Below are positions 12,507 through 30,459 of a stretch of 64,000 nt of DNA, piece after piece. Each line of letters opens with the position of its first letter. Position 1 is the stretch's first letter. The stretch spans positions 2,434 through 66,433 of the forward strand of contig JAYWIG010000039.1 of NCBI GenBank assembly GCA_043789035.1, given 5' to 3'. The DNA is from Betaproteobacteria bacterium. Lineage in GTDB: Bacteria; Pseudomonadota; Gammaproteobacteria; Burkholderiales; Burkholderiaceae_E. Below the pieces are notes generated by a model that saw only the letters and a list, made by a program, of their open reading frames with translations, had not been told where the DNA came from and did not search any database. The position numbers and the translations under genes were made by a program.

Positions 12507-13550
12507 TTAATCGAGCTTAGCGCCAGAATCTTTTACCACTTTAGCCCAACGCTTAACTTCGCCATCAATAAGTTTTGCAAACGGCTCCGGACCTTCGCCA
12601 CCCATTTCAGCACCTAATGCAGCCCAGGCGTCTTTTATTTCTTTGGTCTGCATCGCTTTTTGAATCTCAGTAACGAGCTTAGTAGCAATGTCTTTCGGAA
12701 TACCAACCGGTGCCCATAAGCCATACCAAGTCCGAGCCTCGAACCCCTTAACACCAGCTTCTTGCATCGTCGGGAGGTTCGGCAAAGCTGGTGAGCGCTG
12801 AGCGGAAGTTACTGCCAAGGCAACAATTTTGCCCGATTTAATGTGCGGCATGGACCCTGCCAAACCATCGAACATAAAGTCGACTTGGCCCGCCATTAGA
12901 TCGGCAAGCGCCGGGCCTGCACCGCGATACGGCACATGGACTGCAAATGATCTAGTCATGGTTTTATACATCTCGGCAACCAAATGCTGTGACGTTCCAT
13001 TGCCGACGGAGGCATAGTTGTATTTGCCAGGGTTCGTCTTTATGGCACGCATGAACTCGCCGATATCCTTCATTGGCATGCGATCAGGATTCACCACTAC
13101 GACGTTTGGCACATACGACACGGCAGTTAGCGGCATCATGTCCTTTTGCAAGTTATATGGCAAACGAGGGTACATGCTCACGGCGATCGTGTGATGCACT
13201 GCACCCATAATGATTGTGTAGCCATCTGCTGCAGATTTCGCTGCCTGATCCATTCCCAAAGTGCCACCAGCACCGCCCTTATTATCGATAACGATGGTTT
13301 GGCCCATTTGTTGGGTTAGTACTTTGGCTAAAGGACGTGCGAAAGCATCGGTACCACCTCCTGGTGGAAATGGAACGATCATCCGAATTGGCTTATTCGG
13401 GTAATTCGAAGCTTGAGCAGCAACTTGCGTGCTCAAACCTGCTGCGCTTAAAGCACCAAGGGATGTTGCTGCGTTCACTAAAGAACGTCGACGCGCTTGT
13501 TTGGGGGTTAGCCCTTGACTTGATTCTGAGGTTTTTTTACTTATGGCCAT
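12507..13550 (-). CDS. Bug-family (TctC-like) tripartite tricarboxylate transporter substrate-binding protein
   Basis: It has a Tat-like signal (KQARRRSLVNAATSLGAL) and the Bug hallmarks YPNKPIRMIVPFPPGGGTD and VPYRGAGPALADL. Confidence 0.9.
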   Translation of the reverse strand: MAISKKTSESSQGLTPKQARRRSLVNAATSLGALSAAGLSTQVAAQASNYPNKPIRMIVPFPPGGGTDAFARPLAKVLTQQMGQTIVIDNKGGAGGTLGMDQAAKSAADGYTIIMGAVHHTIAVSMYPRLPYNLQKDMMPLTAVSYVPNVVVVNPDRMPMKDIGEFMRAIKTNPGKYNYASVGNGTSQHLVAEMYKTMTRSFAVHVPYRGAGPALADLMAGQVDFMFDGLAGSMPHIKSGKIVALAVTSAQRSPALPNLPTMQEAGVKGFEARTWYGLWAPVGIPKDIATKLVTEIQKAMQTKEIKDAWAALGAEMGGEGPEPFAKLIDGEVKRWAKVVKDSGAKLD

Positions 13551-13586
13551 AGTGTCTCCTTACAACTTAAAAAATTATTTTGATGT

Positions 13587-14921
13587 CTAAACGCTGTTCG
13601 ATAAAGCCTTTGAAACAGGCACTTCACCAGCAATAAACGATTCGTGATTACTTTCAATTTCATCTAGATCATAAAGATAATTGACCATAGCACCACATGA
13701 CTGTTTTAAACCTTTTTTGGACAGATCGGCGGTCACATTGACCCGCTCAAGCCTTGCTCCGTTGTTTAAATGGAATCTCGCGACTGGGTCACTAGCGACG
13801 CTATTTGAAGATTTGGTATGCATCAAGTAGTAAGCGGCCAACCTTTGTAACATTTTTTGATCTTGCTCATTAGCTTCCAATTTGCTCAAATCGCCACCAC
13901 TTTTTTGCCTTAATGCAACGATACCCAAGTTGAGCTGTTTAAGGCTCAATGGTTTTACAAGTTCACTTTGCAAAGGCTCAGTTTTTAGTAACCAATGGGC
14001 GAAAGTAGGAATAGGCGATAACGTGCAGAAAGTAGAAAGCTTAGGAAACTCTTTTTTCAATTCCTCGGCAACTCGCTTGATCAAAAAATTCCCTAAATTG
14101 ACCCCTTTTAAACCAAGCTGGCAATTCGATATGGAATAAAAAGTTGCGATTTTATACTGGTTTTCATTCGCTTCAGGACTCAAGTTCCTATCGAGCAGAG
14201 GCCCAATTGCGGATGGCATGCTTTTTACCAGTGCAACCTCAACAAAAATTAACGGCTCATTGGGCCAAACTGGGTGAAAAAACACGAACAGGCGTCTATC
14301 TGGTTGCAACCTTCGACGCAAATCATTCCAGCCATCAATCTCGTGCACGGCTTCGTGATGAATGATTTTTTCGAGCAACATCGCCGGCGAGTTCCAATCG
14401 ACTTTTGCCAACGTCAAAAAGCCAGGGTTGAACCACGAGCCCAGCAAATGCTCTAAATCAGAATCAACGGCAATCAGTCGATTTTGCTGCCTGATCGTTC
14501 GCATTTGCTCGAGCAATTCTGCGCGTAACTTGACGATTGCACCAGTTGCACCTGGCGCACGATTCAAACGCCTTAGTAACTCTTGGCGCGGAGGTTCTGC
14601 TGCTCTTGAAAGTTTAATCAAATTCTCAGGCGAACGATTGACCGCGTAGGCTTCAGCTAGCTGCAATACTTCACCCGGATCAGGGTCAAAATTATTCGCT
14701 AGCACCTCGAAGAACCGCTGCCTGCCCTCGACTGACAAATGCGAATAGTGCTCTAAGGCACGGGTTGCTATGGCCACACTGTTGGCTTCACCGCGCTCTG
14801 ACAAAAGCTGCTTGCAATCATCAATCAATCGCGTGAGCTCAACTCTCTCGCGAGCGTTACGCCTAACCTGTTTTATCTTCTCGAACAAAGATACGCCCCT
14901 AACGCAATCATCGGTAGGCAA
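13587..14921 (-). CDS. Malonyl-CoA decarboxylase family protein
   Basis: 444 aa with MCD-like C-terminal catalytic-domain motifs [24 protein letters not shown] and [12 protein letters not shown]. The first ~49 nt overlap the 3' end of lgt, so the start is uncertain. Confidence 0.8.
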
Positions 14922-15652
14922 AGTAACTGCCCCATCGAAAAGCCCATGGCGAGCAAACCTAAGTGTTTATCCGGCTCACGAGCGTACTCAACCACAAATC
15001 GACAAATGCCATAGCCAATCAAAAACATGCCTGCAACATGCCCTGCTGGGCGAGGTTTTTTCGAGTACCACCACAAGAACAAGAAGAGCAAAACGCCCTC
15101 TCCAGCGAACTGATATAGCTGCGAAGGATGGCGAACAATGTTGTCATTGGCCTGCGGAAAAATCATGCCCCAAGGCACAGTCGTTTCCCGCCCCCAAAGC
15201 TCTCCGTTGATAAAGTTGCCCATTCGTCCAGCAGCTAGGCCGGCAGGAATGAGCGGAGCAACGAAATCCATCACCCGTAAGTAGTTCAGCTTGCCGCGCC
15301 GACAAAAAAGTAATAGCGCTAAACTCACTCCAATTAATCCACCATGGAACGACATGCCACCTTCCCAGATCGCAAACGCTTTCCAAGGGGCACTGACATA
15401 GTCCATGGGCTTGTAAAACAGCACGTAGCCCAAGCGCCCTCCGAGCACAACGCCAATCGCACCCCAAAACAAAAGATCTTCCAAGGCTTTCGCGTCAAGG
15501 CCAGAAGCGCTGGAGAACTGCGCCTGCTTAAGCCGTTGACGCCCTAAGAAATAAAAAAGCGCAAAGGCAGTTAAGTACATTAACCCGTACCAGCGTACAG
15601 CGAGCGGGCCAATTGAAATGGCTATGGGGTCGAATTGAGGATGGACAAGCAT
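14873..15652 (-). CDS. lgt: Prolipoprotein diacylglyceryl transferase
   Basis: The motifs [32 protein letters not shown] and [14 protein letters not shown] are canonical Lgt. Confidence 0.9.
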
Positions 15653-15957
15653 GTATGCGTCAATGAACTAGGGAAAGACTCAAATTCTATCGGGCTGGAT
15701 GGCGAAATAGAGCAGTGTTGTTTTTATGGGGACTCGGATAAAAAAATCTAACGGCAAACACACCCCCAAAACCTATTTTGTTTGGATTGTTCGAACTTCA
15801 ATTATTGGCATCAAGAAGGAAGCAGTGGCCCCGACCACTTGTCGGGGTCACGTTGACCGGACAAGCTCCAAATAGCCAGAATTAAGGATAGAAAAGTGTT
15901 AAGGCAACTGGATCGCTCGCTCCAATGGCGATTCGGCAGATTTTAACGAACAAACAC

Positions 15958-17934
15958 ATGAAGTTTATTAGCCAGTTACCAGGACCCATTAAATCGCTAC
16001 GCTTTAAGCGGGCTGTAGCTTTACGCCTATCGATGGCAGCCGTATTTGTTTGCCTTACAGGCTGCGCAGCCGCTCCTGCAACTACGGGTGTTAGCGTACG
16101 GGACACTACTGCGGAACCAAGCCTAGGCTACTTCATTCCCCAAAATACTTTTAGCCAACAAAAACCTAGTTTGCAGGTAGCTTTACCGCAGACATACCCA
16201 CCTCTTTCTACTTCAGAAACGCTAAAACCGTTTACAGCAAAAGTGGTTTTGTATGTTTCTACTACTACTCAGAATTACCTTAATAACGGTAACCTAGATG
16301 CTGGCTACGCACCACAGGTCTGGGAAGTGTTCCTAAAAAAATACAAAATCCCCTACCAAGTTGTCACGAGTATAGGGGACCTAGAGACCACGAGCACCGG
16401 CGTTCTGGTCTTACCTTCATCCGTCGCCTTATCCATAAGAGAGCGACATGCGATAGCCAGTTTTCGTGCGCGTGGCGGAAGCGTCTTAGCAACGTGGCTC
16501 TGCGGAGTAAGAGACGATACTGGCAATTGGGTTGGTTTCGACTTCATGGAAAAGACGCTTGACGCAAAGGTTGTCGGAGATACTTCAAAGGATAAGCACG
16601 ATAATTTTTTAATGCCCAACGGTGACAGCCCGATTTCGAACGCCTTGCCCGCGGGCCGCAGAGTCTGGTTGGAAAGAGCCAAAGAATGGTACCCATTGCG
16701 GTTAGCTGGTCGAAATAGCGCTGCACACATCATGGACTGGTCACGCACATTCGACGTCGACAAAGAAACTAGTGTCATCGTTTTTGACGAGCGGCCTTTA
16801 GACCAAAGCGGAGCTTCTCGCAGCGTTGTGATTGGCTATCCCGAAAGGCTTTGGCAAAGTGCAAACCCTGAACACATAGAAGCGATAAACTATGATGCCA
16901 TTATGTGGCTACTTAGACTTCCAAGCGCCTACAAAGTGGCCTGGCCCGCACCGTTTACGAGCGCAACCGCAATCACCATAGATGCTGCAGAAGTAATCGC
17001 TGCGCCCGATATGAGCATCGCAGATCTTATAGAAAAGACTGGTGCAAAAGCAACCTACTACAGTGTTGCTGAACACGTTCCAAAATCGGTAAAGAACCTA
17101 GTTGAGTTGCAAAAGCGAGGACATGAACTTGGCTTTATGGGGGATTCGTTTAATGGCTTCGAAGGGCAATCGCCGGCAATTCAAGCTATGCGCCTTGAAA
17201 AAATGAAGCAAAAATTTAAAGACGCAGGCCTGTCGATGCCAGCTAACCCCGGCTTTCATGCTCCGACCGAATCCTACGACAAGAACACGGTAGAACTGCT
17301 TTTGAAAAGAGGATTTGGCCATTATGTTTCGTTCATGGATGCGACAGATTCAAGGCTCCCGTTTATTGCGCCTACAGGTAACAATGCAGCAACAAACACC
17401 GCCTCAATCTCGACAGTTGTTCTGCCCCGAACCCAGCGCGGGCCTGAAGACGCAACCGAAGAAGGTGTTGTTGACGACGGCTTAAAGTCATTTTTCGCAG
17501 AACTCACGCTCGCAGAGAAAATGGGCGGCTTATCCGTCGTTCGATTACCTACTCAGAGCCTATTACCCATAGAAGAGTGGACAAAAGTCTTTAAGGACTT
17601 TGAAACTCGCAAAAATAGGATGTGGATGCCGACTGGCGCAACCATTGCCCATTGGTGGCGTGAGCGTGAACGAGTCAATGCAAAAATTGAAGGAATATCG
17701 AGTTCACCAGAATTAAAAGTTGAAATCATAGGCACAACGACTCTCGAGAAAGACGTTGTGGTGTGGGTGAACTTACCGACTTCAGGAAGTACGCTAACGA
17801 TGATCAACTCCGATTCATCAACGGCCTCCGACCCTTTGCCAAAAGTGTTCCGAGTAGACCAATGGCGAGCAGGAATACTGCTGGTCAACTTGAAACCCGG
17901 CAGCCACCGCTGGCGCTTACAGTTCAAAAGTTAA
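15958..17934 (+). CDS. Lipoprotein: conserved N-terminal domain plus a CE4/NodB-like polysaccharide-deacetylase-fold domain with degenerate active-site motifs
   Basis: The lipobox is VCLTGC. It is a paralog of 35368-37221, sharing GVLVLPSxVALS...GGSVLATW, VVLPRTQR and HWWRxRxR. The deacetylase motif positions read TIDAAE / GFMGDSF / FHAPTESY, so the His-His pair and the Arg are missing. Confidence 0.6.
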   Translation: MKFISQLPGPIKSLRFKRAVALRLSMAAVFVCLTGCAAAPATTGVSVRDTTAEPSLGYFIPQNTFSQQKPSLQVALPQTYPPLSTSETLKPFTAKVVLYVSTTTQNYLNNGNLDAGYAPQVWEVFLKKYKIPYQVVTSIGDLETTSTGVLVLPSSVALSIRERHAIASFRARGGSVLATWLCGVRDDTGNWVGFDFMEKTLDAKVVGDTSKDKHDNFLMPNGDSPISNALPAGRRVWLERAKEWYPLRLAGRNSAAHIMDWSRTFDVDKETSVIVFDERPLDQSGASRSVVIGYPERLWQSANPEHIEAINYDAIMWLLRLPSAYKVAWPAPFTSATAITIDAAEVIAAPDMSIADLIEKTGAKATYYSVAEHVPKSVKNLVELQKRGHELGFMGDSFNGFEGQSPAIQAMRLEKMKQKFKDAGLSMPANPGFHAPTESYDKNTVELLLKRGFGHYVSFMDATDSRLPFIAPTGNNAATNTASISTVVLPRTQRGPEDATEEGVVDDGLKSFFAELTLAEKMGGLSVVRLPTQSLLPIEEWTKVFKDFETRKNRMWMPTGATIAHWWRERERVNAKIEGISSSPELKVEIIGTTTLEKDVVVWVNLPTSGSTLTMINSDSSTASDPLPKVFRVDQWRAGILLVNLKPGSHRWRLQFKS

Positions 17935-17948
17935 AAGTTAGAAATTCA

Positions 17949-18407
17949 ATGAACACACTTACTGATTACTTTCGTTCGCAACAAGTCCCCTTGCAATGGT
18001 CTCCTTTGTTAAGGGCACTTGGCCAAGAACTAGTAGTAAATGCGGATAAGCAGGCTCTGCATCAATTGTTTTTTAATGTCGGCAGCAGATTTGCGACAAC
18101 TGTATTGCCACAATTCTCTGGAATTGCAACGCTGAAAGAACTAAATGAAGCTCTTAACGGCGTGTGGGCATCTATGAGTTGGGGTTATGTAGAGCTCACT
18201 GAGGCCACTACTGCCATTGAAATAGAACATCGTTACGCGCCGCTAGCAGAAGCCTTCGGTGACGAAATGTTGGAATGGTCTATCGGCGTAATGGAAGGCT
18301 TTTATCAAGCTGTTTTTCATTCTTTTGGTGCGAGCGAGAAAATGACTGCAAAATATGTTTCTGAGAAAAGTGATGCTTTACAAATTCACCTACGCTTGGT
18401 TCCTTAA
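17949..18407 (+). CDS. bcsD: Cellulose synthase subunit D (BcsD/AcsD-like)
   Basis: 152 aa. LNEALNGVWASMSWGYVELTE...IEIEHRY and WSIGVMEGFYQAV parallel Komagataeibacter AcsD (LQIELNALLAMINWGYVKLDL...RIVHEDL, WLAPVLEGLYGRW, from memory). The ORF-track start at 17763 overlaps the upstream gene, so the ATG at 17949 is preferred. Confidence 0.75.
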   Translation: MNTLTDYFRSQQVPLQWSPLLRALGQELVVNADKQALHQLFFNVGSRFATTVLPQFSGIATLKELNEALNGVWASMSWGYVELTEATTAIEIEHRYAPLAEAFGDEMLEWSIGVMEGFYQAVFHSFGASEKMTAKYVSEKSDALQIHLRLVP

Positions 18408-18444: not shown

Positions 18445-19065
18445 ATGACCAACATAACACCAACCCAGCAACTGTTTGCAGCCTTAAAACCGGAAGATAG
18501 TTCAAGTCAAAAGGCAATCAATGAGGCTACACAAGCTGCAGAGAAACGCTGGCCACTATTAAAGTCACTCGCTCCTGAAAAGTGGGCCATCGCCCCGGCG
18601 CTTTCTGAAGATGAGAAGCTACGTCGGAATCGACTAGAGCCAATCGAAGTAGTTCCTCGAAAACCGGCTGCGTCAGCGCCAAACATTAACGCTCAACTAG
18701 CAAACGCTTTAAACCGCATGGCAGCTGCAAAGCCTTTAGGCGTTACAAAAGATATTACGCATGCACCAACTACCCCAGCTCAATTGCCGACTACAGGTTC
18801 AATTGTTAAGACGGCTCCAGTTACCGCTGCCTTTACCTCTGTACTTACCGCCTCCATTGCAGCGCAGGCATCCACCCACGAAGCGGAGCCAACAACCACT
18901 CCAGTGCCAATATTCAAGCCTGCTTCAGCCTCAGTAGTGCAGCCCAGTAAGCCTAGCGACAATTCGATTTTGTCTGTACTGAAACGCGTCGAACTGGCAA
19001 ACGTTGCAGAGCCTATCGACAAAGAAAAAATATCAGGATTTCTTTCAAGGCTAGGCAAAAGATGA
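18445..19065 (+). CDS. BcsR-like (RWPLL motif) protein with long Pro/Thr/Ala-rich extension
   Basis: AAEKRWPLLKSLAPEK resembles the C-terminal ALKRWPLLAEF of E. coli BcsR. The gene lies directly 5' of bcsQ with an ATGA overlap. The remaining ~150 aa are low-complexity and P/T/A-rich. Confidence 0.5.
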   Translation: MTNITPTQQLFAALKPEDSSSQKAINEATQAAEKRWPLLKSLAPEKWAIAPALSEDEKLRRNRLEPIEVVPRKPAASAPNINAQLANALNRMAAAKPLGVTKDITHAPTTPAQLPTTGSIVKTAPVTAAFTSVLTASIAAQASTHEAEPTTTPVPIFKPASASVVQPSKPSDNSILSVLKRVELANVAEPIDKEKISGFLSRLGKR

Positions 19066-19826
19066 GTGTGATTAGTGTTATTTCGATGAAGGGAGGGGTA
19101 GGAAAAACCTCGATCACGGCTAATTTAGCCAGTGCTATCTCCCAACGTCCAAATGCACCAACAGTGGCGGTCATTGATCTCGACCCACAAAACGCGCTGC
19201 AATGGCACTTTGGTTTCATGGAACAACAGTCTGCGGGAATTTGCCAACTTTCAGTCAAGGTCGGCGCACTAAACGAAGCTCACCTAAAAACAGACAAAAA
19301 CATCCTTTGTTACCCCTATGGGTTTGCTGATGAACCTACCCGCAAAGATTTTGAATCGCTTTTGAAAGAGAATCCAGAATGGTTGAAGCAGCAAATTCAG
19401 AGTCTAGATTTACCATCTGAATCGATTATCTTAATAGATACACCGCCAGGCCAATCACCCTATATGGCCCAAGCAATGTCTGCCGCCAATCTTGCTCTGG
19501 TGGTCCTATTGGCGGATGGTGCATCCTATGCAACCGCTCCTATGATGGAAACAGTCTTTGAGGAAATGATTCCTCTGAATCCGTACTTAAGAAGCGCGTA
19601 CCTGATCAATCAGGTAGACCCGACCAATGCCTTAAGTACAGATATCCAAGTAATGCTTACCCAACGATTAGGCAATAGATTGGTGCCGGTTCAGATTAGT
19701 GAAGATGAAGCGGTACGAGAAGCATTAGCCTTCCAGCAATCAGTTTTGATTTACGATGAAAACGGTTTAGCTAGCCATGATTTTGCAAGGCTAGCCGAAT
19801 GGACAATGGGGCTAGATTTGTCATGA
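19062..19826 (+). CDS. bcsQ: BcsQ (YhjQ/WssA)-like MinD/ParA-family ATPase
   Basis: Motifs VISMKGGVGKTSITANLA, VIDLDPQN and IDTPPG. It lies immediately upstream of the bcsA-like gene. Confidence 0.8.
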   Translation: MSVISVISMKGGVGKTSITANLASAISQRPNAPTVAVIDLDPQNALQWHFGFMEQQSAGICQLSVKVGALNEAHLKTDKNILCYPYGFADEPTRKDFESLLKENPEWLKQQIQSLDLPSESIILIDTPPGQSPYMAQAMSAANLALVVLLADGASYATAPMMETVFEEMIPLNPYLRSAYLINQVDPTNALSTDIQVMLTQRLGNRLVPVQISEDEAVREALAFQQSVLIYDENGLASHDFARLAEWTMGLDLS

Positions 19827-21901
19827 ATCCTAGGCTAGTGCTACAGCTTTGGCGTCAAAGATGGGGGAAGGCCGAGGAAGGCTTTGCTGAAAAGATGTAC
19901 GTTGAAGGCAAGATATCAGATTGGCTGGGAAACGTACCGTATTCAACGGTATGGAGTAACGCCGGAGTAACTGGCTTAGTGGTGCTTGTAAGCGCAGTTT
20001 TTCTTTTGGTTGTTAGCCAAATCAACTTCTCCATGAACGGACAAATTACATTTGCTGGTTTAATGATCACGATCGCAATGTACTTACGCCGTTTCAAAGG
20101 CCAATTAATTACCCTTATGCTTGCGTGTCTATCACTAATTTGTACGCTTCAATACTTCATATGGAGGTTGGAGCAATCAATAGCCGAGCAGACTGGCATT
20201 GCATTTGTTTGGGCCTTTGTTGTTGGTTCAGCCGAAGTTTGCGTAGCGTTTTACCTAGCCGTCGGTTGGCTCATTCACCTATGGCCTAGCGAACAAGGGG
20301 AAGTTGTTCTTGGTCCAAACGAAAACGCCTATCCATTGATCGATCTCGTCATCATTTGCTCAGATGCCGATGAGCAACAAGCCACTAAACAAATAAATGC
20401 CGGTGCCGGCCTAGACTGGCCAACTAAAAAAGTTCAACTTTTTATTACCGATTCACAAAATAGACAAGCGATTAAAGAACTCGCGGCAAAACTTAATGCA
20501 AATTTCAACGAGACACTAGCGTCAAACATTGCAGTAGGCACCAGTGATCTGCTTGTGCTGATCGAGGTAGGAGATGACGACCCAACGCTACTGCCAAAAG
20601 ACTTTCTACAGCATACTATTGGGTGGTTCGTAGAGGACGCGGGTCTCGCTATTTTGTCGAATTCAACGCATTTCTTGGCACACAAACCTTGTGAAAAAAT
20701 TCTAAGAAAGTATTCGCAGTCAAGCCATAGCCGCGCGGTCCTTCGGCGAGCAGAATTACCTATTGACCAGAACGCTACTAACAACGCCCTAAAAGCCAGA
20801 CTAAAAGCCAGAAGCGCGTTACTCGTCGATGCACCTGTTCGGCAGGCAAACGTGCAAAGTAAGTTTCTTCGGGTTGATCGTGCCGATTCAAACGTAATTA
20901 CACAAGGCAAAGAAGCCCTTGTTAACCTATACCAAATGCTACAGTTTTATAGCCTGCTCGTAACGCTCTTGTTTTTTGTCGTACCGGTTGCAACCCTTTT
21001 CGGCGGTGTACGACTATTGCAAGCTCCAATTGAATGGTGGGCCGCACACTTTTTACCATTTCTAGCCTTAGGCGCAATCACAGAAGCTAGATGTAGGGGT
21101 AACTACCGATTAGGGACATTGAAGGATATCAAAGAACTCGCTCTGAGCGCTTACTTCCTTGTTCCCGCGGCAAAGTCATTCTTAAAAACAAAACTTGCAA
21201 GCCCAGCAGTTGCAATCACTCGCTTTCAAGCAGATCAAAATACGTACCAGTTGCTTCGCACCACCGTCATTTATTTACTTTTTTGGGCAAACACTATCGG
21301 TGCCTTGCTGGGTTTCTGGGCATTACTTTTCGGAAGTACGATTCAAATTGAATGGTCGATTTTTTTCTGCGTTTGGGCGATTTGCAACTCGGCAATTTTG
21401 CTTGCAAAAAAAGCTATCGATCATGAATCCAGTGAAGTAAAGTATTTCGCTAAGAATCAAGGAAATCTAAACGGCGCAATTCGAATGCCATTTGGAAGAA
21501 CACTCGCCTGTGAAACGATGAACTTTCCAAGCCCAACGCTAACCCTAAAGACGCCGGCGACAATAGGGCTGAGTAAAGATTCAGAGGCTCAGGTGATACT
21601 CCAACATCAAAATAAATCTTATGCACTGAAGACTAAAATTTTAGAAATCAATGATCAACAATGCACAGTGTTGGTAGGTTCAGACTCTCAATCCGAATAC
21701 CAAGCACTAAAAGATGCGGTGTTTGCACGAGGTGCCAATTGGCCGAAATGGCTACCAGATCAAAATGCAGATAAACCGTTTCCAGATTGGGTCTACAAAA
21801 CCGTAGCAATTATTTCTGGCAAATCGGTAGATTTACTCACCAGTCTGACGACACGACCGAGCTGGGAGATCTTCATTCAACTTTGGAAAAAACAAAAATG
21901 A
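19823..21901 (+). CDS. BcsA-like cellulose-synthase homolog with degenerate catalytic and PilZ motifs (putative pseudo-glycosyltransferase)
   Basis: The BcsA architecture is present: N-terminal TMs, a GT2-like region, TMs and a C-terminal PilZ-like region. Collinear matches include GWFVEDAGLAILSNSTHF (BcsA GYFVEDPxLxLVQTPHFF), AVLRRAEL (AVLRRxAL) and FARGANWPKW (E. coli FARADTWALW). At the catalytic positions TED reads IDQ and Q(R/Q)xRW reads TQGKEA. HAKAGN is absent. At the PilZ positions RxxxR reads GAIR and DxSxxG reads NFPSPT. Confidence 0.7.
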   Translation: MNPRLVLQLWRQRWGKAEEGFAEKMYVEGKISDWLGNVPYSTVWSNAGVTGLVVLVSAVFLLVVSQINFSMNGQITFAGLMITIAMYLRRFKGQLITLMLACLSLICTLQYFIWRLEQSIAEQTGIAFVWAFVVGSAEVCVAFYLAVGWLIHLWPSEQGEVVLGPNENAYPLIDLVIICSDADEQQATKQINAGAGLDWPTKKVQLFITDSQNRQAIKELAAKLNANFNETLASNIAVGTSDLLVLIEVGDDDPTLLPKDFLQHTIGWFVEDAGLAILSNSTHFLAHKPCEKILRKYSQSSHSRAVLRRAELPIDQNATNNALKARLKARSALLVDAPVRQANVQSKFLRVDRADSNVITQGKEALVNLYQMLQFYSLLVTLLFFVVPVATLFGGVRLLQAPIEWWAAHFLPFLALGAITEARCRGNYRLGTLKDIKELALSAYFLVPAAKSFLKTKLASPAVAITRFQADQNTYQLLRTTVIYLLFWANTIGALLGFWALLFGSTIQIEWSIFFCVWAICNSAILLAKKAIDHESSEVKYFAKNQGNLNGAIRMPFGRTLACETMNFPSPTLTLKTPATIGLSKDSEAQVILQHQNKSYALKTKILEINDQQCTVLVGSDSQSEYQALKDAVFARGANWPKWLPDQNADKPFPDWVYKTVAIISGKSVDLLTSLTTRPSWEIFIQLWKKQK

Positions 21902-24267
21902 ACTTAAACCATCGTAAGACTTGGCTGCCGTTCGTTGATCGCTATTTGCTCGCTTTCTCCATCGTTGTAACGCTAATGATTGTTAGCCAACCTACTTTTT
22001 CCCAGACAAAACAACCTGTCGCAACAGAAACGGCTAAAGTCAAATCTTCGGTCACAACACAAGCAGTTAGTGCACTAAAAACCGTAAAAGCAGCGCCGCC
22101 ATTAGAAACACCCCTTCCGATTGCTAGTGGTGTCGAAAACTCAAATTCAGGACGCCGAGTTATTAGCCTTCCTATCAAGCAAATAGGCGCATGGTCAGCA
22201 ATTAAATTGAGAGGAGTTGACGCATCCAGAGTTCTGGCCTTCACTGTTAGAGCCGACGAGATGATTGTCGGAGCAAGACTTAGCTTGAATTATGACTACT
22301 CACCTTCATTGATTGAGGAATTGAGCCATCTTAAAGTTCTTATCAACGACAAAATTACTGCAGTCGAACAGCTCAGCCTAAACAAGGGCGTTGGTATAAA
22401 GAAGGAATATGTCCTTGATCACACCAATATGAAGGAATATAACGAACTTCGTTTTAATTTTATTGGTCACTACACGAGGCAATGTGAAGATCCTTTTCAC
22501 TCTTCGCTTTGGCTCTCCATCAATGAATCTACTACGCTTGAGCTGACTGTTGTACCGCGCGCAATCAGTGCGGATCTAAAGTATTTGCCTGCCCCGTTTC
22601 TCGACAAAAGGGACACTAATCCCTTAAATTTACCGGTTGTATTTTCCGCAACGCCATCGCTGGGAACCCTTAAGGCTGCCGGAATCGTTACATCTTGGTT
22701 TGCACTTCAAGCGGGTACTCGAGGCGCGCAATTTCCTGCCTTTTTGAATGAATTACCGAAGACCCATGCCATTGTTTTTATCAATGGCAATGAAGATGTA
22801 GCGGGGTATAAAGGTGTGCCCGGCGCGTTAATCTCCATTCAACCTAATCCTAATAATCCTCAGGCTCAATTGCTTATTATCAATGGCACCTCTGATGTGG
22901 ATTTGCTCAAAGTCGCTAGTGCCCTTGCGCTCATGCATCAAACCATGGCAGGCAGAAGTGTTGGCATCACTGAAGACGTAGTGTCTGCACTCAGAAAGCC
23001 GTATGATGCGCCGGCTTGGATAAGAACAGATCGGCCTATGAAATTCGGCGAATTGGCAAAACTCGAAGAGCTTAAAGTGCAAGGTTACTACCCAGAGTAC
23101 ATTCGCGTAAATTATCGAGTTCCTCCCGATGTATTTACCTGGCGCACAAACGGTGCACCTATCGATTTGAAGTATCGAGCGACGCGCTTGCCGTTTCATA
23201 AAAACTCGGCCTTAAACGTCGGTATCAACAACAACTTTATCGATACGATTGCATTAAATGATCCTGCTGAAAACCCTGCAAATATTCAGCTCATCCAAAC
23301 TGCGAAAAAATCGGTACGTGACGCTCATCTTAAGCTGCCGCCATATGCACTGGGGGGACGCGATCAGATGCAATTCGCATTTTCCTTTGATGTTATTAAG
23401 CAGGGTGAATGCCAAGCCTTGCCTCCGGACAATTTAACCGCATCGATTGACGCAGAATCAACGATTGATTTCAGCGTGTTCCCAAAATTCACCGCTCTGC
23501 CTAATCTCGCATTTTTTACCCAAATCGGGTTCCCTTTTACACGCGTCGCTGACTTATCAGAGACTAATGTGGTGATTTCGGATAGACCTACATCTGACGA
23601 AATCGGAGTTTACCTAATGGTGATGGGACGCATGGCCGAGGCGACCGGCTACCCACCAATAAATCATACCCTTATCAGCATTGCTGAAGTTGGCAGGGAT
23701 ATAGATAAAGACCTGATCATCATTGGTACTAGCCAGAGCCAGAAGCTCTTGTCCGATTGGGCTGCCAAGATGCCAGTGTATACCGACGGTGGCATTCGAA
23801 AGCTTAGGGAGGCAAACGTTAGTTGGCGGCCCACCTATCGCTGGGAACAAAAAGACATTGACGGAGATACAAAACCTAAGGGCTCCGTGAACCTTTCAGG
23901 CGTGGGTAACTTGGTCGCCATGATGGGTTTCGAATCTCCGCTGAAAGCCACTAGAAGCGTCGTTTTTCTGTATGCGGATCAAGCCAGCGACTTTAAGCGA
24001 ATGATCGAAACATTGCTTGATTCAGAGCGAGTGAGAAATATTCAGGGTGACTTTGTAGTCGTTGGTGACAAGGCAATTCAGCACGCCAGAGCAAGCGATA
24101 CCTACTACCTTGGACACATTCCTTGGTACAACAAGTTTCGTTGGTTCTTAGCCGACAACCCCATCCTAGTCGCATTTGTCGCATTGCTTCTAGCGTTACT
24201 GGCCTCCGCTGTTTTGTATAGGCCATTGAAGTTCGTCACAAATAAAGTATTCAAAAAAGGCAAATGA
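21898..24267 (+). CDS. bcsB: Cellulose synthase periplasmic subunit BcsB
   Basis: The ATG at 21898 overlaps the upstream stop (ATGA). It has a signal/anchor sequence and the BcsB hallmark LSLNYDYSPSLIEELSHLKVLIND. A single C-terminal TM anchor reads LVAFVALLLALLASAVLY. Confidence 0.8.
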   Translation: MNLNHRKTWLPFVDRYLLAFSIVVTLMIVSQPTFSQTKQPVATETAKVKSSVTTQAVSALKTVKAAPPLETPLPIASGVENSNSGRRVISLPIKQIGAWSAIKLRGVDASRVLAFTVRADEMIVGARLSLNYDYSPSLIEELSHLKVLINDKITAVEQLSLNKGVGIKKEYVLDHTNMKEYNELRFNFIGHYTRQCEDPFHSSLWLSINESTTLELTVVPRAISADLKYLPAPFLDKRDTNPLNLPVVFSATPSLGTLKAAGIVTSWFALQAGTRGAQFPAFLNELPKTHAIVFINGNEDVAGYKGVPGALISIQPNPNNPQAQLLIINGTSDVDLLKVASALALMHQTMAGRSVGITEDVVSALRKPYDAPAWIRTDRPMKFGELAKLEELKVQGYYPEYIRVNYRVPPDVFTWRTNGAPIDLKYRATRLPFHKNSALNVGINNNFIDTIALNDPAENPANIQLIQTAKKSVRDAHLKLPPYALGGRDQMQFAFSFDVIKQGECQALPPDNLTASIDAESTIDFSVFPKFTALPNLAFFTQIGFPFTRVADLSETNVVISDRPTSDEIGVYLMVMGRMAEATGYPPINHTLISIAEVGRDIDKDLIIIGTSQSQKLLSDWAAKMPVYTDGGIRKLREANVSWRPTYRWEQKDIDGDTKPKGSVNLSGVGNLVAMMGFESPLKATRSVVFLYADQASDFKRMIETLLDSERVRNIQGDFVVVGDKAIQHARASDTYYLGHIPWYNKFRWFLADNPILVAFVALLLALLASAVLYRPLKFVTNKVFKKGK

Positions 24268-25013
24268 AAACTGTCGCGTTTATTTCTGGTAAAGGAGGGG
24301 TTGGGAAATCCACCGTTTGCGCAAACTTAGCCGTTGCGCTGGCAAAGCGTGGAAAGAAAGTGGCCGTTATTGATCTCGATCCACAGAACAGCCAGCGTTT
24401 GCATCTTGGCCTAGGTGTTGACGAGATAGCGGGCTTGGTACGCGAAAGCATTGATGTCACTGCATTATTCGATAGCCCCTTTGGCGTATTTTTTATCCCT
24501 TTCGGGCGTGCCAGCGATGAAGATTTAGAAGAGTTCAGAAGCCTATTGCTTAAAGAAGATCAATGGGTGCGCAACCGAATTGCCAGCCTCGTTTCTTGCG
24601 GCTTCGATTATGTATTTCTAGACACACCTCCCGGCGCATCGGTCTACTTAGAGCAAGCCATTAATGCGGCGAACAAAGCAATCGTAGTGGTACTGCCGGA
24701 TGCGGCATCGTTTCTAACCCTGTCGAAAACGACATCACTTATTGCACAGTATTCGGCAGGCAGAAGTGACTTTCAAGGAGCCATAAGACTCATCAATCAG
24801 ATGCCAACCGAAAGTCGATTGGGTCATCAAGTTCGAGACGCCATTTATGCGGATTCCACCATGCCGGTGATACCGCTCGTTATTCATAAAGACAGCGCTG
24901 TATCGCAGTCTCTTGCCTTCGAGCAACCCGTACTTGAGTACGAACCGGGCACTATGGCAAGCCTAGACTTCCAGTATTTAGCTGATTGGTTTTTAGACAG
25001 CATGCAGCAATGA
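24264..25013 (+). CDS. Second BcsQ/WssJ-like MinD/ParA-family ATPase
   Basis: Motifs FISGKGGVGKSTVCANLA, VIDLDPQN and LDTPPG. It is a paralog of 19062-19826 and has an ATGA overlap with bcsB. Confidence 0.75.
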   Translation: MKTVAFISGKGGVGKSTVCANLAVALAKRGKKVAVIDLDPQNSQRLHLGLGVDEIAGLVRESIDVTALFDSPFGVFFIPFGRASDEDLEEFRSLLLKEDQWVRNRIASLVSCGFDYVFLDTPPGASVYLEQAINAANKAIVVVLPDAASFLTLSKTTSLIAQYSAGRSDFQGAIRLINQMPTESRLGHQVRDAIYADSTMPVIPLVIHKDSAVSQSLAFEQPVLEYEPGTMASLDFQYLADWFLDSMQQ

Positions 25014-26116
25014 CATTTCGCCTCGTTTGTAGTCTATTTGCGGCTTTAACATTATTGACATTGATAACACCGCAAACAGTGTTCGCGAATACCTCGCATA
25101 AGGCTTGGGTGTATCAGGCATGGTGGCAACCTGAAAGTTGGAAGAAAGCGCCTCTCGATAAGATTGATCGAGTACTTTTCTTTGAAATCAAAGTAAACCC
25201 CAATGGCACTATTTCCGAGAAGAACGGCTGGCCAGAAAAATGGTTTGACCTAAGCGCTGCGTTACATAAAGCCAATACACCGCTTGACCTCACACTCACT
25301 TTGCTGAACACCAAAGATTTTCAGGAGGTTTTTTCATCTGATCAAGCCACCGCAACCCTTCTGGAGCATGCGGCAAACCTTGCGAGCGATAAAACCGTCG
25401 CTGGTATACATTTAGATTTCGAGGTTTACACGACTCTACCTGAAGCAGTTAAAACGCGATTTCAGAAATTTGTGATCGATTTAGCAAAAAGACTTCGAAG
25501 TACGATTCCTGCCAAGAATTTATCGGTATTTTTGCCTATCGGTGGAACGGCCTCAATTTATACGGCGCAAGCCTTGACCGAAGTAAATTATGTGGTCGCA
25601 CAAGGCTACGACGCGCACTGGGCCAGCGGAGCAAACGCTGGGCCAGTCGCGCCATTAGACGGTGCGGGCGCTGTGACTTGGAAAAAGGCAGTTGCGCAGG
25701 CTCAGAAACTCGGCGTAAAACCTTCCAAACTCTTACTTAGTTACCCGTTTTATGGGTACGAATGGCGAACCGCAGATAAAAATATCCAAGGCAATTCGAT
25801 CGCGGAAGGTGTAACAACAACCCTCGCCCCGATGGATATAAAGGTCATGCCAGACATTCGGATCAACGTTGAGGACCGTATCAAAGCTTATAGGACTAGT
25901 AATGACCTTCTTAGCAGTTCGTCGTTTTACCAATTCCAGAAAGACGGGCAGTGGGTAACTGGATGGTATGAAGGGCAATGGGCGTTGGGGAAAAAAATGC
26001 AATTTATGCAAAATCAGAAAATAGCTGGCATGGCATTTTTTGTACTCGGCTATGACAATGGTAAGTTACTGAATTCATTTCTATCAAGTAACGATGCAAA
26101 AAAGGAACGAAGGTAA
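25010..26116 (+). CDS. Secreted GH18-like (chitinase/SleL-YaaH-like) glycoside hydrolase
   Basis: The signal peptide is MTFRLVCSLFAALTLLTLITPQTVFA. VAGIHLDFEVY matches the GH18 DxxDxDxE region with the D-x-E retained. The late IAGMAFFVLGYDNG is typical of the GH18 C-terminus. Confidence 0.55.
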   Translation: MTFRLVCSLFAALTLLTLITPQTVFANTSHKAWVYQAWWQPESWKKAPLDKIDRVLFFEIKVNPNGTISEKNGWPEKWFDLSAALHKANTPLDLTLTLLNTKDFQEVFSSDQATATLLEHAANLASDKTVAGIHLDFEVYTTLPEAVKTRFQKFVIDLAKRLRSTIPAKNLSVFLPIGGTASIYTAQALTEVNYVVAQGYDAHWASGANAGPVAPLDGAGAVTWKKAVAQAQKLGVKPSKLLLSYPFYGYEWRTADKNIQGNSIAEGVTTTLAPMDIKVMPDIRINVEDRIKAYRTSNDLLSSSSFYQFQKDGQWVTGWYEGQWALGKKMQFMQNQKIAGMAFFVLGYDNGKLLNSFLSSNDAKKERR

Positions 26117-26124
26117 AGGTAAAC

Positions 26125-27510
26125 ATGGTCTTTAGTTCAAATTTATTCCTATTTGCCTTTTTACCTCTGTTTTTGCTTTGTTACTACGCGGTGCCGTCAA
26201 AGTTTCGTTCGGCTCAGATCCTACTCTTTAGCTATGTATTTTATGCTTGGTGGCGCCCCGATTTCCTTTTTCTACTTATGGGAGTATCGGCCGGCACTTA
26301 CGCATTTGCTTTAGCTATTAACGCTACTGTCGATGAGACAAAGCGCTATCGCTTGCTCATCATAGCCGTGACTTTGAACTTAATGACTCTGGCCTACTTT
26401 AAGTATGCGAACTTTGGTGTTGAAAGCTTCAACACAGCATTGGCCGCCCTCGGTGTTAACAAGATACCGTTCACTCATGTCTTGTTACCAATTGGTTTGT
26501 CTTTCTATATATTTCACGCCATTAGTTACCTTGTTGACATCTACCGGAAAGAGGCGCCTCCGGCGAGAAATCTTATCGATTTTGCCGCCTTCATCGCACT
26601 TTTTCCGCATCTAGTAGCGGGCCCGGTTCTTCGATATCACTTACTCGCGGAGCAATTCAAGAGTCGAGTTCATTCCATCGATCAATTCGCACGCGGATGC
26701 GTTATCTTTATGGTCGGCTTTTGCATGAAGGTGTTGATTGCGGATTCAGTCGCCCCCCTAGCCGATGCAGCCTTCACCGCCGCCAACCCTAGTTTTATCG
26801 ATGCCTGGCTAGGTACATTTGCTTACACGATTCAGCTATTCTTCGATTTCAGTGGTTACTCATCTATGGCGGTAGGCCTAGCTTTGATGATCGGATTCAA
26901 ATTTCCCGAAAACTTTAACGACCCCTATCTTTCGGTTTCGATAACGGACTTTTGGAAGCGCTGGCATATGTCGCTTTCGAACTGGTTACGTGAATATCTC
27001 TATATTCCATTAGGGGGCAATCGAAAAGGGGTATGGCGTACTTACCTTAACCTATTTCTCACTATGTTGCTTGGGGGTATATGGCATGGCGCTAACTGGA
27101 CCTTCGTAGCCTGGGGAGCGTGGCATGGCGCGATTTTGGCCATTGAAAAATTCTACGGTGACAAATATGGGCCACTTCCAATTCCTCGATGGTTACGAAT
27201 CGCGAAAACAATGTTGCTCGTCATGATCGGCTGGGTGTTTTTCAGAGCAGAAAGCCTTACAGATGCATGGCGTATGTTCAAGGCTATGCTCGGCTTAAGT
27301 GGTGTTGGTTTAAGCCCATCAATACTGTGGCAAATTAACTCCGACGCGCTTTGGGTACTTCTCATAGGGGCGGTGATGGTCTATGCGTTGCCAGTCATTC
27401 GTCGCTACGCGCATACCCCAATCCGCTTTTTGCTGATTCCTTTGTTCCTATGGGCGCTGACAACACTGTCCGCGCAATCGTTCACCCCGTTCCTTTACTT
27501 CCAGTTTTAA
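26125..27510 (+). CDS. algI: MBOAT-family polysaccharide O-acetyltransferase (AlgI/WssH-like)
   Basis: 461 aa and polytopic. It carries the MBOAT signature FWKRWHMSLSNWLREYLYIPLGGNR and GGIWHGANW. Confidence 0.9.
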   Translation: MVFSSNLFLFAFLPLFLLCYYAVPSKFRSAQILLFSYVFYAWWRPDFLFLLMGVSAGTYAFALAINATVDETKRYRLLIIAVTLNLMTLAYFKYANFGVESFNTALAALGVNKIPFTHVLLPIGLSFYIFHAISYLVDIYRKEAPPARNLIDFAAFIALFPHLVAGPVLRYHLLAEQFKSRVHSIDQFARGCVIFMVGFCMKVLIADSVAPLADAAFTAANPSFIDAWLGTFAYTIQLFFDFSGYSSMAVGLALMIGFKFPENFNDPYLSVSITDFWKRWHMSLSNWLREYLYIPLGGNRKGVWRTYLNLFLTMLLGGIWHGANWTFVAWGAWHGAILAIEKFYGDKYGPLPIPRWLRIAKTMLLVMIGWVFFRAESLTDAWRMFKAMLGLSGVGLSPSILWQINSDALWVLLIGAVMVYALPVIRRYAHTPIRFLLIPLFLWALTTLSAQSFTPFLYFQF

Positions 27511-29727: not shown

Positions 29728-30459
29728 CTACTTACCTGTGTAGCGTTCAGTTCTGTTTTGTACGGACTTAGCAGTCAACATACCTTTTTCATTTGGCATC
29801 AAAAACAAGCTGTAATTCGCACCGGCAGCCATTGCAAGTCTGATCCTCGGCGCATTCGCAGCAACCGTTTCCTCTGAAGATTTCGCCGCAATCAGCTCAA
29901 CAGAAATTGGATTCACTTGGATTGAGTTGGATGTGCCGTAGCCCAAATTGGTGAAAACTTTAGTGCCTCCGTCTACAGTCATGACATTCAAAGGCCCAGA
30001 TTTGCCATCGAGGTGATAAGCCGCAACCAGCGACTTCAACTTATTTGTATTTGCTTTGTCTTCGAAAATCGCCGGAGCTGCACCAGACTTGCTGGAAAAA
30101 AATGCCACCGTCATCGCCTTGCCAGGAACCACATCAAATACATGGGACGTCAATACTGTTGATTTCGATGCAGCATGCAAGGCAATAGTATGTTTACCAG
30201 CGGTAAGCACCATGTAGTCGCTGACCTCACCGGCACCGATCTTTAACGCCTTCGGCTTACCGTCGATGAAAATATCAAAGGGGGCATCAGTATTGACGAC
30301 TAGCACTCGAACATAGGCGGAATCCGCCGGAGGTTCGGGATCGTATAGGAGCCCCGCCGGTTGAGCAATACCAGCAACAGGATGTATTAAAAGCTGCGCA
30401 GTGACAAGGCCAGTCAAACCTTGTAATGCACTTCGCCTCGACGAAAAGAAACGATTCAT
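29728..30459 (-). CDS. AlgF/WssG-like periplasmic acetylation protein
   Basis: The likely start MNRFFSSRRSALQG has a Tat-like RR. LLYDPEPPADSAYVRVLVVN, a two-domain beta-rich pattern and VNPISVELIAA parallel P. aeruginosa AlgF (ALYGPSAPKGSTFVRLYNAS, INPVKVNLALF, from memory). Confidence 0.65.
   Translation of the reverse strand: MNRFFSSRRSALQGLTGLVTAQLLIHPVAGIAQPAGLLYDPEPPADSAYVRVLVVNTDAPFDIFIDGKPKALKIGAGEVSDYMVLTAGKHTIALHAASKSTVLTSHVFDVVPGKAMTVAFFSSKSGAAPAIFEDKANTNKLKSLVAAYHLDGKSGPLNVMTVDGGTKVFTNLGYGTSNSIQVNPISVELIAAKSSEETVAANAPRIRLAMAAGANYSLFLMPNEKGMLTAKSVQNRTERYTGK

Follow-up and report, generated by a model that had tools for sequence, protein, structure and literature searches.

What keeps a cellulose synthase gene in its place once its product appears to have lost the residues with which cellulose is made? 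The question is raised by a 64-kb stretch of contig JAYWIG010000039.1 from a betaproteobacterium (48% G+C; the window in what follows), whose closest loci belong to metagenome-assembled genomes (MAGs) of Betaproteobacteria and in which an open reading frame (ORF) at 19823–21901, on the forward strand and between bcsQ and bcsB, encodes a 692-residue degenerate homologue of BcsA. This protein and the family to which it belongs are here called BcsA*. In bacterial cellulose systems BcsA counts as the catalytic subunit by which the system is defined. The answer that we consider rather likely is that BcsA* is a pseudo-synthase retained in the membrane as a hub to which BcsB and the cytosolic Bcs proteins attach, polymerisation being left to an intact family 2 glycosyltransferase (GT2) encoded further downstream. 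Because the motifs are lost, the ORF is conserved and the gene lies beside bcsB and an intact synthase gene, BcsA* is probably a structural part of a so far undescribed machine that secretes slime.

A BcsA homologue and its missing motifs

The ORF reads through 692 codons without interruption to a stop codon at 21899–21901, and at both ends it overlaps its neighbours by the tetranucleotide ATGA, at 19823–19826 with the bcsQ stop and at 21898–21901 with the bcsB start. An intact 692-residue ORF translationally coupled in this way to both genes had been claimed in an earlier annotation made from the sequence alone (the original prediction), and both junctions were verified, as were the positions of all the peptides quoted in it (GWFVEDAGLAILSNSTHF, AVLRRAEL, FARGANWPKW, ICSDAD, IDQ, TQGKEA, AITRF, GAIR and NFPSPT). 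Gene callers place the start at an upstream ATG (19799), giving 700 residues; since conservation in the family starts with M1, P3, L7 and W10 of the 19823 start, which are near-invariant, the latter is favoured.

A phmmer comparison with the sequences of the Protein Data Bank (PDB) paired BcsA* with Escherichia coli BcsA (7lby_A and 9fmv_A, E = 7e-41) in two blocks, residues 49–301 and 361–654, between which lies a stretch about 48 residues shorter in BcsA* than in the E. coli protein. Alignment with hhalign of 68 family members to 12 canonical BcsA sequences, including that of E. coli K-12, gave a probability of 100% (E = 5e-108) over 646 columns with the same domain order, bearing out the proposed collinearity with BcsA. 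In a Pfam scan no family was found in BcsA* at E ≤ 0.01, neither GT2 (PF00535, PF13632, PF13641) nor PilZ (PF07238), and the NCBIfam BcsA models NF008558 and TIGR03030 gave 199.6 and 133.5 bits, below their cut-offs of 992 and 699.1; no model capturing the family exists in Pfam or NCBIfam.

The hhalign alignment, read in E. coli BcsA numbering, locates the losses. The motifs concerned serve in BcsA for UDP-glucose coordination, metal binding, the catalytic base, acceptor binding, the gating loop and c-di-GMP binding (PMC10237404). In BcsA*, YNE is replaced by SDA, D312-D-G (DDG) by D-S-Q and D360-C-D362 (DxD) by E-V-G, HAKAGN falls inside a 10-residue deletion and QTPHHF reads SNSTHF. FFCGS has gone in a deletion of approximately 23 residues, the following CAVIRR surviving as RAVLRR. 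Of TED, T455 and E456 are deleted and the catalytic base D457 aligns to N317; a 16-residue deletion takes Q493 and R494 of QxxRW, so that I-R-W497 aligns to R340-Q-A342; and the gating loop FNVTAK (FxVTxK) has become PAVAIT. In the PilZ region RRSHR (RxxxR) corresponds to KYFAK (K540...K544) and DFSDGG (DxSxxG) to NFPSPT (N567-F568-P569). Through the deletions the catalytic core is approximately 50 residues shorter. An alignment-free scan of the whole protein found no TED, QxxRW or FxVTxK, and the sole match to [DN]xSxxG was NFSMNG at residue 68, within a membrane helix.

The loss of catalytic and c-di-GMP-binding motifs put forward in the original prediction thus holds, and extends to the whole family; intact copies elsewhere in the protein were found neither by profile alignment nor by the alignment-free scan. 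Three of the sites that it had equated with lost motifs are misplaced by a few residues: IDQ aligns to E. coli E-I-G right before TED, TQGKEA aligns past the FRLDNP segment, and GAIR lies 11 residues beyond the true RxxxR position. A candidate for a surviving DxD, the DDD at residues 250–252 that phmmer pairs with DCD, was rejected: hhalign puts EVG there, with DDD immediately behind it, and DDD is not conserved even in a 74%-identical orthologue. As judged from these alignments, BcsA* lacks the BcsA active site, the gating loop and the PilZ c-di-GMP site. It would be unable to bind or transfer UDP-glucose, to hold an acceptor glucan, to operate a gating loop or to bind c-di-GMP through PilZ motifs, and would be expected to have no residual activity.

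Word-indexed protein searches with BcsA* returned nine close homologues; an exhaustive hidden Markov model (HMM) search of 1.84 billion representatives exposed a larger family, with 174 matches at E ≤ 1e-30, approximately 75 of which are proteins of about 700 residues aligned end to end. Lower-ranked matches are canonical BcsA (865–907 residues) and BcsA–BcsB fusions (approximately 1450 residues), each aligned in two separate stretches. Per-site counts were taken from a MAFFT alignment of 74 degenerate and 12 canonical representatives, again with E. coli BcsA as numbering. HAKAGN, TED, QxxRW and FxVTxK are kept in 12/12 canonical controls. Among the 74 degenerate members none has Asp at D457, none has Q493 or W497, none contains HAKAGN or FxVTxK anywhere in its sequence, and F617, T620 and K622 never occur together (0/74). 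The PilZ D-F-S positions are occupied by N (69/74), F (72/74) and P (73/74), and Arg is found at the first RxxxR position in 32/74. Erosion is graded: the members of two metagenome loci (L008 and L020) still have DD, GKPGN, DCD, QTPYHF, T-D-Q and RRQTR, and the window's subfamily is the most eroded.

Compared with canonical BcsA (Rhodobacter sphaeroides 4HG6 and 4P00; E. coli 9FP0 and 9FMV), BcsA* is therefore alike in near-full-length homology, in domain order, in its place between bcsQ and bcsB and in the structural invariants Y213, W216, R217, E240, R439/R440, R792 and W796, the first four being invariant in both groups (74/74 among the degenerate members) and the last two being retained by most degenerate members. 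It differs in the absence of DDG, HAKAGN, DxD, FFCGS, TED, QxxRW, FxVTxK and both PilZ motifs. Along the alignment, its conservation pattern is the inverse of that of a real synthase: conservation in the family is lowest over residues 301–356, where TED and QxxRW once lay (1.36 bits per column), and in canonical BcsA it is highest over the corresponding segment (3.56 bits). Best conserved in BcsA* are the N-terminus, transmembrane helices (TM) 1–4, the PilZ-like barrel and the C-terminal WPxWLP segment, TM5–8 (1.64 bits) being no better conserved than the remainder. New family-specific invariant motifs are the N-terminal LWRxRWGK, NFP and WPxWLP.

These patterns bear on the proposal that BcsA* is an active glycosyltransferase with non-canonical catalytic residues. 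In its favour are an uninterrupted ORF, purifying selection and a GT-A-like β/α core that is still modelled (see below). Against it, the protein has lost the catalytic base, the motifs that bind the acceptor (QxxRW and FFCGS), the diphosphate (HAKAGN) and the metal (DxD), the gating loop and some 50 residues of the core; conservation is lowest in the ex-catalytic segment, and no substitute acidic residue is conserved at or near TED, so that such an activity is very improbable. As to ancestry, a single origin of the degenerate family appears likely: in a neighbour-joining tree, the 12 canonical sequences and P0157, a BcsA relative with altered motifs, lie on one side of a single branch, although the tree alone is no proof because its midpoint root falls among the fast-evolving degenerate sequences.

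Selection and predicted fold

In comparison with its orthologue on metagenome contig L007, to which it is 87% identical, BcsA* has a dN/dS of 0.226 with a dS of 0.29; dS is unsaturated in this comparison (approximately 0.25–0.36 across genes). The corresponding ratios are 0.085 for BcsD, 0.095 for BcsQ, 0.142 for BcsB, 0.152 for PDA1, a polysaccharide deacetylase homologue encoded at the head of the array, and 0.310 for the BcsP-like protein. Within BcsA* the ratio goes from 0.13 in the N-terminal 45 residues, the lowest value, to 0.28 in the glycosyltransferase remnant, and other orthologue pairs gave 0.12–0.29. The ORF is of full length in about 30 loci, even where identity has fallen to 24%, and it always lies between bcsQ and bcsB. 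BcsA* is under purifying selection. The original prediction had held that the gene is retained rather than decaying and had named dN/dS as a check; the values, far below 1, give no sign of pseudogene-like evolution, and retention is upheld; a non-catalytic role as scaffold or channel, also proposed there, would be in keeping with this. The opposite view, that of a decaying pseudogene as yet uninterrupted, can point to BcsA* being, together with bcsP, the fastest-evolving gene of the locus. It is scarcely credible and was dropped, being contradicted by a dN/dS of 0.12–0.29 in five orthologue pairs and by low values in every sub-region, by full-length ORFs across lineages so divergent, by the rise of new invariant motifs and by a confident AlphaFold model built from the family alignment.

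That model, obtained with AlphaFold2 from the 68-sequence alignment (pLDDT 88.3, pTM 0.82), comprises four N-terminal helices, an alternating β/α domain (residues 173–352), a set of helices (357–546), a six-stranded barrel (550–618) and C-terminal helices. Its top Foldseek matches in the PDB are E. coli BcsA (9fp0_A, E = 6e-30) and R. sphaeroides BcsA (4p00_A and 4hg6_A, E = 1e-19 to 4e-18), and in the model the individual domains are BcsA-like. By combining model and alignment, six segments can be set out along the forward strand. Residues 1–45 (19823–19957) form a family-specific N-terminal segment, in which M1, P3, L7, W10, R11, R13, W14 and K16 are near-invariant among the 68 members and which has no canonical counterpart; canonical BcsA has a long N-terminus instead, and its alignment begins only at approximately position 31 of the family profile. 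Residues 46–155 (19958–20287) are the four N-terminal membrane helices (49–66, 71–88, 94–120 and 126–153 in the model) with the retained BcsA invariants Y111, W114, R115 and E138, equivalent to E. coli Y213, W216, R217 and E240. Residues 156–356 (20288–20890), as delimited by hhalign columns and per-site counts, are a shrunken GT-A remnant; residues 357–546 (20891–21460) are interface and membrane helices homologous to TM5–8 of BcsA; residues 547–633 (21461–21721) are the PilZ-like β-barrel; and residues 634–692 (21722–21901) are a conserved C-terminal segment (R636, W640, P641, W643, L644, P645 and D650) partly in common with canonical BcsA (R792, W796). In window coordinates, the invariant motifs peculiar to the family fall at 19823–19957 (L7 to K16), 21521–21529 (N567-F568-P569) and 21728–21772 (R636 to D650).

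The eight membrane helices with their interface helices, retained and confidently modelled, the column-by-column alignment of TM5–8 with BcsA and a near-canonical BcsB are what would be expected of a translocation channel without a synthase, one that would let a glycan from the GT2 or some other enzyme pass through its membrane domain to BcsB. We regard this function as unlikely, since GT2 synthases of the PgaC/hyaluronan synthase type have a membrane channel of their own, and the alignment of the window GT2 with hyaluronan synthase extends over the membrane region; moreover, the entrance residues, W497 of QxxRW and FFCGS, are deleted, and TM5–8 is not conserved above the rest of BcsA*.

An intact synthase and the surrounding genes

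The GT2 gene at 33786–35135 on the forward strand, which the original prediction did not mention, encodes an intact processive synthase of the PgaC/IcaA-like kind (Pfam GT2 families at E = 1e-29 to 1e-34), with AYNE, DDGS, GGKAEALN, DGD, AED and QRYRW all present. PgaC_IcaA (TIGR03937) is its best NCBIfam match, at 220 bits below the cut-off of 422, and no Pga model reaches its equivalog cut-off on the window's tetratricopeptide repeat (TPR) protein, GT2, small membrane ORF or CE4 protein. Its PDB relatives include hyaluronan synthase, the match covering the membrane region; more than 5000 homologues are 75–96% identical to it, and its counterparts in related loci are 71–90% identical. From its motifs and its position it is likely to be the polymerase of the locus, supplying the activity missing in BcsA*.

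Upstream of the GT2 gene, at 32392–33795 (+), lies that of the TPR protein (TPR_1), with a β-rich C-terminal half and a weak match to the PgaA TPR model (TIGR03939, E = 1.7e-05), for which a role as PgaA-like exporter is suspected; its single-sequence model is unreliable (pLDDT 37), and a PDB profile search gave generic TPR proteins only. Downstream, the ORF list contains a 74-residue single-pass membrane protein in a PgaD-like position (35137–35361, +), with a TTG start and a single hydrophobic helix ahead of a basic stretch, and then PDA2 (35368–37221, +), a CE4 deacetylase homologue (PF01522, E = 1.8e-10) with an HGDVH motif. ORFs of 72–80 residues occupy the same spot in loci L032, L033, L036, L037, L038 and L040, and the small protein could be a partner of the GT2.

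BcsA* itself belongs to a co-directional, packed array (overlaps or gaps of at most 37 bp) in the order PDA1, BcsD, BcsP, BcsQ, BcsA*, BcsB, BcsQ2, GH18, MBOAT and AlgX, all on the forward strand, followed by a second AlgX gene and AlgF on the other strand and then by BcsE, TPR, GT2, the 74-residue ORF and PDA2. PDA1 (15925–17934), a 669-residue CE4-like polysaccharide deacetylase homologue (PF01522, E = 4e-07), is syntenic in L001, L003, L007 and L038, and BcsD (17949–18407; PF03500, E = 1.4e-16) in nearly all loci. A Pro/Ala-rich protein (18445–19065) is tentatively BcsP-like, on the basis of a weak match to NF040718 (18.8 bits against a cut-off of 55) and of its conserved place between bcsD and bcsQ. 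BcsQ (19062–19826) is a SIMIBI ATPase (TIGR03371, 201.9 bits against a cut-off of 157.85) and BcsB (21898–24267) is near-canonical (PF03170, E = 7.7e-195, 649 bits; NF008323, 732 bits). BcsQ2 (24264–25013; TIGR03371, 167.4 bits) is a second, syntenic BcsQ-like ATPase in a WssJ-like position. In the GH18-family protein (25010–26116; PF00704, E = 1.2e-22) the chitinase motif D-x-D-x-E reads H-L-D-F-E, with D-x-E kept and His in place of the Asp before it. The O-acetylation genes encode an AlgI/WssH-like O-acyltransferase of the MBOAT family (26125–27510; PF03062, E = 2.1e-34), two AlgX/AlgJ-like SGNH proteins (27537–28694, +, PF16822, E = 2.6e-72; 28683–29687, −, PF16822, E = 3.5e-52) and an AlgF-like protein (29728–30483, −; PF11182, E = 2.4e-13). 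The two deacetylase homologues, PDA1 and PDA2, are paralogous (approximately 30% identical), both with large flanks without a Pfam match; no H-x-x-x-H motif was found in the PDA1 sequence, and PDA1, to judge from it, may itself be non-catalytic.

The BcsE homologue (30778–32253, +; 491 residues; PF10995, E = 4e-34) is recognisable only up to the degenerate receiver (REC*) domain. In BLASTP it covers only residues 264–359 of E. coli BcsE, with TPEL in the place of RATD; no R..D occurs in its whole sequence, RxxD and RxGD motifs are absent, and no GGDEF* module is found. By motif content, neither of the known Bcs c-di-GMP sensors, the BcsA PilZ domain and BcsE, is thus recognisable in the window organism. 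The BcsE homologue of Rhodoferax aquaticus (L032:6478–8433) is full length and keeps RPGD.

The comparison of gene order rests on three Betaproteobacteria MAG loci from a genome collection (L001–L003), 24 metagenome loci retrieved with a 16-sequence query subset (L008–L031) and nine more obtained by exact look-up. Wherever the contig reaches, in approximately 30 loci, the order BcsD-BcsP-BcsQ-BcsA*-BcsB-BcsQ2 is found, usually followed by GH18-MBOAT-AlgX-AlgX-AlgF, and bcsB adjoins BcsA* in all loci extending that far. Identity to the window across loci is 24–35% for BcsA*, 39–52% for BcsQ, 49–60% for BcsB and 71–78% for the MBOAT protein, BcsA* being the most diverged protein of the locus except BcsP. 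An intact GT2 module adjoins the array in at least six independent locus types (the window, L003, L024, L036/L037, L038 and L040); the TPR-GT2-small ORF-PDA block lies directly upstream of BcsD in the last five and downstream in the window. In R. aquaticus (CP036282.1) and Curvibacter sp. APW13 the GT2 gene belongs to MBOAT/GH18-AlgX-AlgF-BcsE-TPR-GT2-small ORF-PDA arrays that resemble the window's, the fetched range stopping short of the expected BcsA* site.

Between bcsB and bcsQ2 some of these loci have a TPR gene of variable length, which encodes 812 residues in L021 (11349–13787), 388 in L024 (14371–15537), approximately 310 in L036 (19867–20808) and L040 (14495–15424) and approximately 200 in L008 (14456–15088) and L039 (14516–15094), and which is missing in the window. 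Its shrinking across loci suggests a stepwise loss of BcsC, the Bcs export function also having been given up, and from these gene lengths the loss of BcsC looks as if it ran parallel to the decay of BcsA. In a more distant locus (L034:4380–7031) an 883-residue gene product at the bcsB position has no recorded Pfam match, so that BcsB may also be diverging in some lineages.

The gene content also bears on whether BcsA* assists, without catalysis of its own, a canonical BcsA whose gene lies elsewhere in the genome, or whether a second Bcs system is present; the locus would then still make an acetylated cellulose-type glucan as in the wss operon. The locus does resemble that operon, with two BcsQ-like and AlgI-, AlgJ/X- and AlgF-like genes (PMC8892547), and some Comamonadaceae have two bcs clusters (PMC13453990). 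However, no canonical BcsA was found within the 64-kb window or in any of the approximately 35 fetched loci, there is no bcsZ, bcsC is missing or shrinking (Pfam and NCBIfam scans of the window found neither GH8/bcsZ nor BcsC), and an intact GT2 with an exporter and a deacetylase of its own is repeatedly adjacent. To these points should be added that GH18 and CE4, by the usual substrates of the two families, would point to an N-acetyl-hexosamine polymer and not to a glucan. On balance a remote BcsA partner is improbable.

A putative secretion platform and its relatives

Taking BcsA* as a membrane hub, the following scheme can be drawn. The protein appears to descend from a type I (bcsD-containing) cellulose synthase and keeps the BcsA architecture (four TM helices, GT-A domain, four membrane/interface helices, PilZ barrel and C-terminal helix), and would act as the inner-membrane hub of a Bcs-derived accessory module, anchoring periplasmic BcsB. 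BcsA holds BcsB in the membrane in solved complexes. The PilZ-like and C-terminal domains, together with the new N-terminal segment, would dock BcsQ, BcsQ2, BcsE, BcsD and BcsP. In E. coli the cytosolic Bcs proteins assemble around the PilZ module (PMC8892547, PMC7840130). The GT2 and its 74-residue membrane partner would polymerise and translocate the polymer, which CE4, GH18 and AlgI/AlgX/AlgF-type enzymes would trim or modify and which would be exported via the TPR protein. From the presence of CE4, GH18 and AlgI/X/F proteins, and from the usual substrates of these families, an N-acetyl-hexosamine polymer, de-N-acetylated and O-acetylated, may be guessed. Taken as a whole, the locus could encode a novel synthase-dependent exopolysaccharide machine in which a dead BcsA–BcsB pair with BcsD, BcsP, BcsQ and BcsE would be the platform for a PgaC/chitin-synthase-like GT2 and its small partner, with an N-acetyl-hexosamine product partly de-N-acetylated, O-acetylated and GH18-trimmed; BcsA* would then be the first synthase-turned-pseudo-enzyme subunit in a bacterial secretion system. 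This fuller picture is tentative, if by no means far-fetched.

Several observations weigh against a hub of this kind. Vestiges of the synthase persist among the degenerate members, with D312 in 56/74, D or E at D360 in 55/74, H391 in 60/74, R439 in 69/74 and R440 in 66/74, so that residual nucleotide or glycan binding is possible. The global TM score of the model against BcsA structures is only 0.31–0.37, with an rmsd of approximately 20 Å (Foldseek), and the membrane packing may therefore differ from that of a BcsA-like hub; the low value could reflect a different packing of the modelled domains or the effect of superposing a multi-domain protein. The dN/dS of BcsA* exceeds that of BcsQ, BcsD, BcsB and PDA1 (0.23 against 0.09–0.15), which indicates relaxed constraint. 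The 10-kb flanks of L008, L020, L031 and L039 end before a possible GT2 gene, and because the flanks of several loci end too early universal co-occurrence with GT2 is not established; these four loci and L001 stop at AlgX, AlgF, PDA or BcsE, and the window-type order places GT2 just beyond. Finally, 64 kb of the genome are covered, and a canonical bcsA may lie elsewhere.

The partly kept UDP-contacting residues D312 and D360 and the first RxxxR Arg, together with the invariant NFP, which argues for a specific function, and a BcsE without recognisable c-di-GMP sites, so that another sensor may be needed, would also suit a protein in which the GT-A remnant or the PilZ-like barrel acts as a non-canonical sensor of a nucleotide sugar or messenger, regulating the GT2 or the acetylation. 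Contacts to the donor have, however, been lost in HAKAGN, at the second Asp of DxD and in the gating loop, and we think the odds of such a sensor are low.

Among known systems, the wss operon of Pseudomonas fluorescens SBW25 (WssA-J; PMC8892547, PMC7112194), whose polysaccharide synthase is WssB (PMC7112194), is similar to the window in having two BcsQ-like proteins, BcsA, BcsB and alginate-type O-acetylation genes (AlgI/WssH, AlgJ-X/WssI and AlgF/WssG). With respect to the wss type, the acetylation genes, both BcsQ and BcsB are thus present in the window, but the synthase is degenerate and the BcsZ (GH8) and BcsC of wss were not found; conversely, wss lacks the BcsD, BcsP, BcsE, GH18, CE4 and PgaC-like synthase of the window. 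In content, the TPR protein, GT2, small membrane protein and CE4 protein mirror PgaA, PgaC, PgaD and PgaB of pgaABCD/icaADBC, from which the window differs in gene order, in the sizes of exporter and deacetylase, in having this module within a Bcs/Alg-type locus and in a GT2 that is not an equivalog. In the Alg8–Alg44 pair of alginate synthesis, as in the scheme proposed here, GT2 catalysis is separate from a PilZ-bearing second membrane protein with a periplasmic partner. The PilZ domain of Alg44 binds c-di-GMP and Alg44 is not synthase-derived, whereas the second protein of the window is a dead synthase with a degenerate PilZ domain, paired with BcsB.

Enzyme folds kept after the loss of catalysis inside a secretion complex are also found in the GGDEF* domain of PelD and in REC*-GGDEF* of BcsE (PMC8892547), but these domains keep a defined ligand site (I-site), none being recognisable in BcsA*, where the degenerate unit is the synthase itself. 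The pseudomonad BcsA-like 'Orphan' proteins (PMC10237404) are, like BcsA*, divergent BcsA relatives automatically annotated as cellulose synthase. They keep DxD, ED and QRFRW, lack PilZ, have a GH17 domain and are not encoded beside bcsB (PMC10237404), so that BcsA* is their reverse: motifs lost, PilZ fold kept and bcsB adjacent. In type I bcs clusters bcsD accompanies bcsA, bcsB and bcsC, with bcsP/bcsQ in subtype Ic (Romling and Galperin 2015, as relayed in PMC13453990). The window has bcsD, a bcsP-like gene, bcsQ and bcsB in the canonical order, bcsC being absent from it and bcsA degenerate, and by gene content it looks like a derivative of the type I cluster and not a member of it. The Acidovorax soli Q11 cluster, of type Ic with bcsC, makes a cellulose-like exopolysaccharide according to its authors (PMC13453990), and nothing in this account hints at a degenerate BcsA.

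Searches of open-access papers and preprints brought up no account of a degenerate BcsA or of a hybrid locus of this kind. We class BcsA* as a pseudo-enzyme that derives from BcsA and is embedded in a system recombined from Bcs, Pga and Alg-type parts. Members of the family are annotated by JGI as 'cellulose synthase (UDP-forming)', and because pipelines apply this label carriers of BcsA* are probably mis-scored as cellulose producers. A conserved dead BcsA coupled to BcsB would separate two confounded roles of BcsA, as enzyme and as assembly hub. The cultured Comamonadaceae R. aquaticus and Curvibacter sp. APW13, in which the GT2-containing half is present, are candidate carriers, and genetics would be feasible if BcsA* were found there. 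The locus also illustrates the recombination of Bcs, Pga and alginate modules, and, with more than 5000 close GT2 homologues, it suggests that a polysaccharide not yet characterised is widespread among betaproteobacteria of fresh water and soil.

Outside the locus, a 2005-residue ORF (43751–51930, −) lies directly upstream of a PBP1C-type penicillin-binding protein with transglycosylase, transpeptidase and BiPBP_C domains, an arrangement that resembles the usual alpha-2-macroglobulin/pbpC pair. Genes of the lgt, tctC and tauE families flank the locus both in the window (12507–15652) and in L038 (19835–22133), on opposite sides of the rearranged cluster, and these shared housekeeping neighbours suggest internal rearrangement at a fixed chromosomal site.

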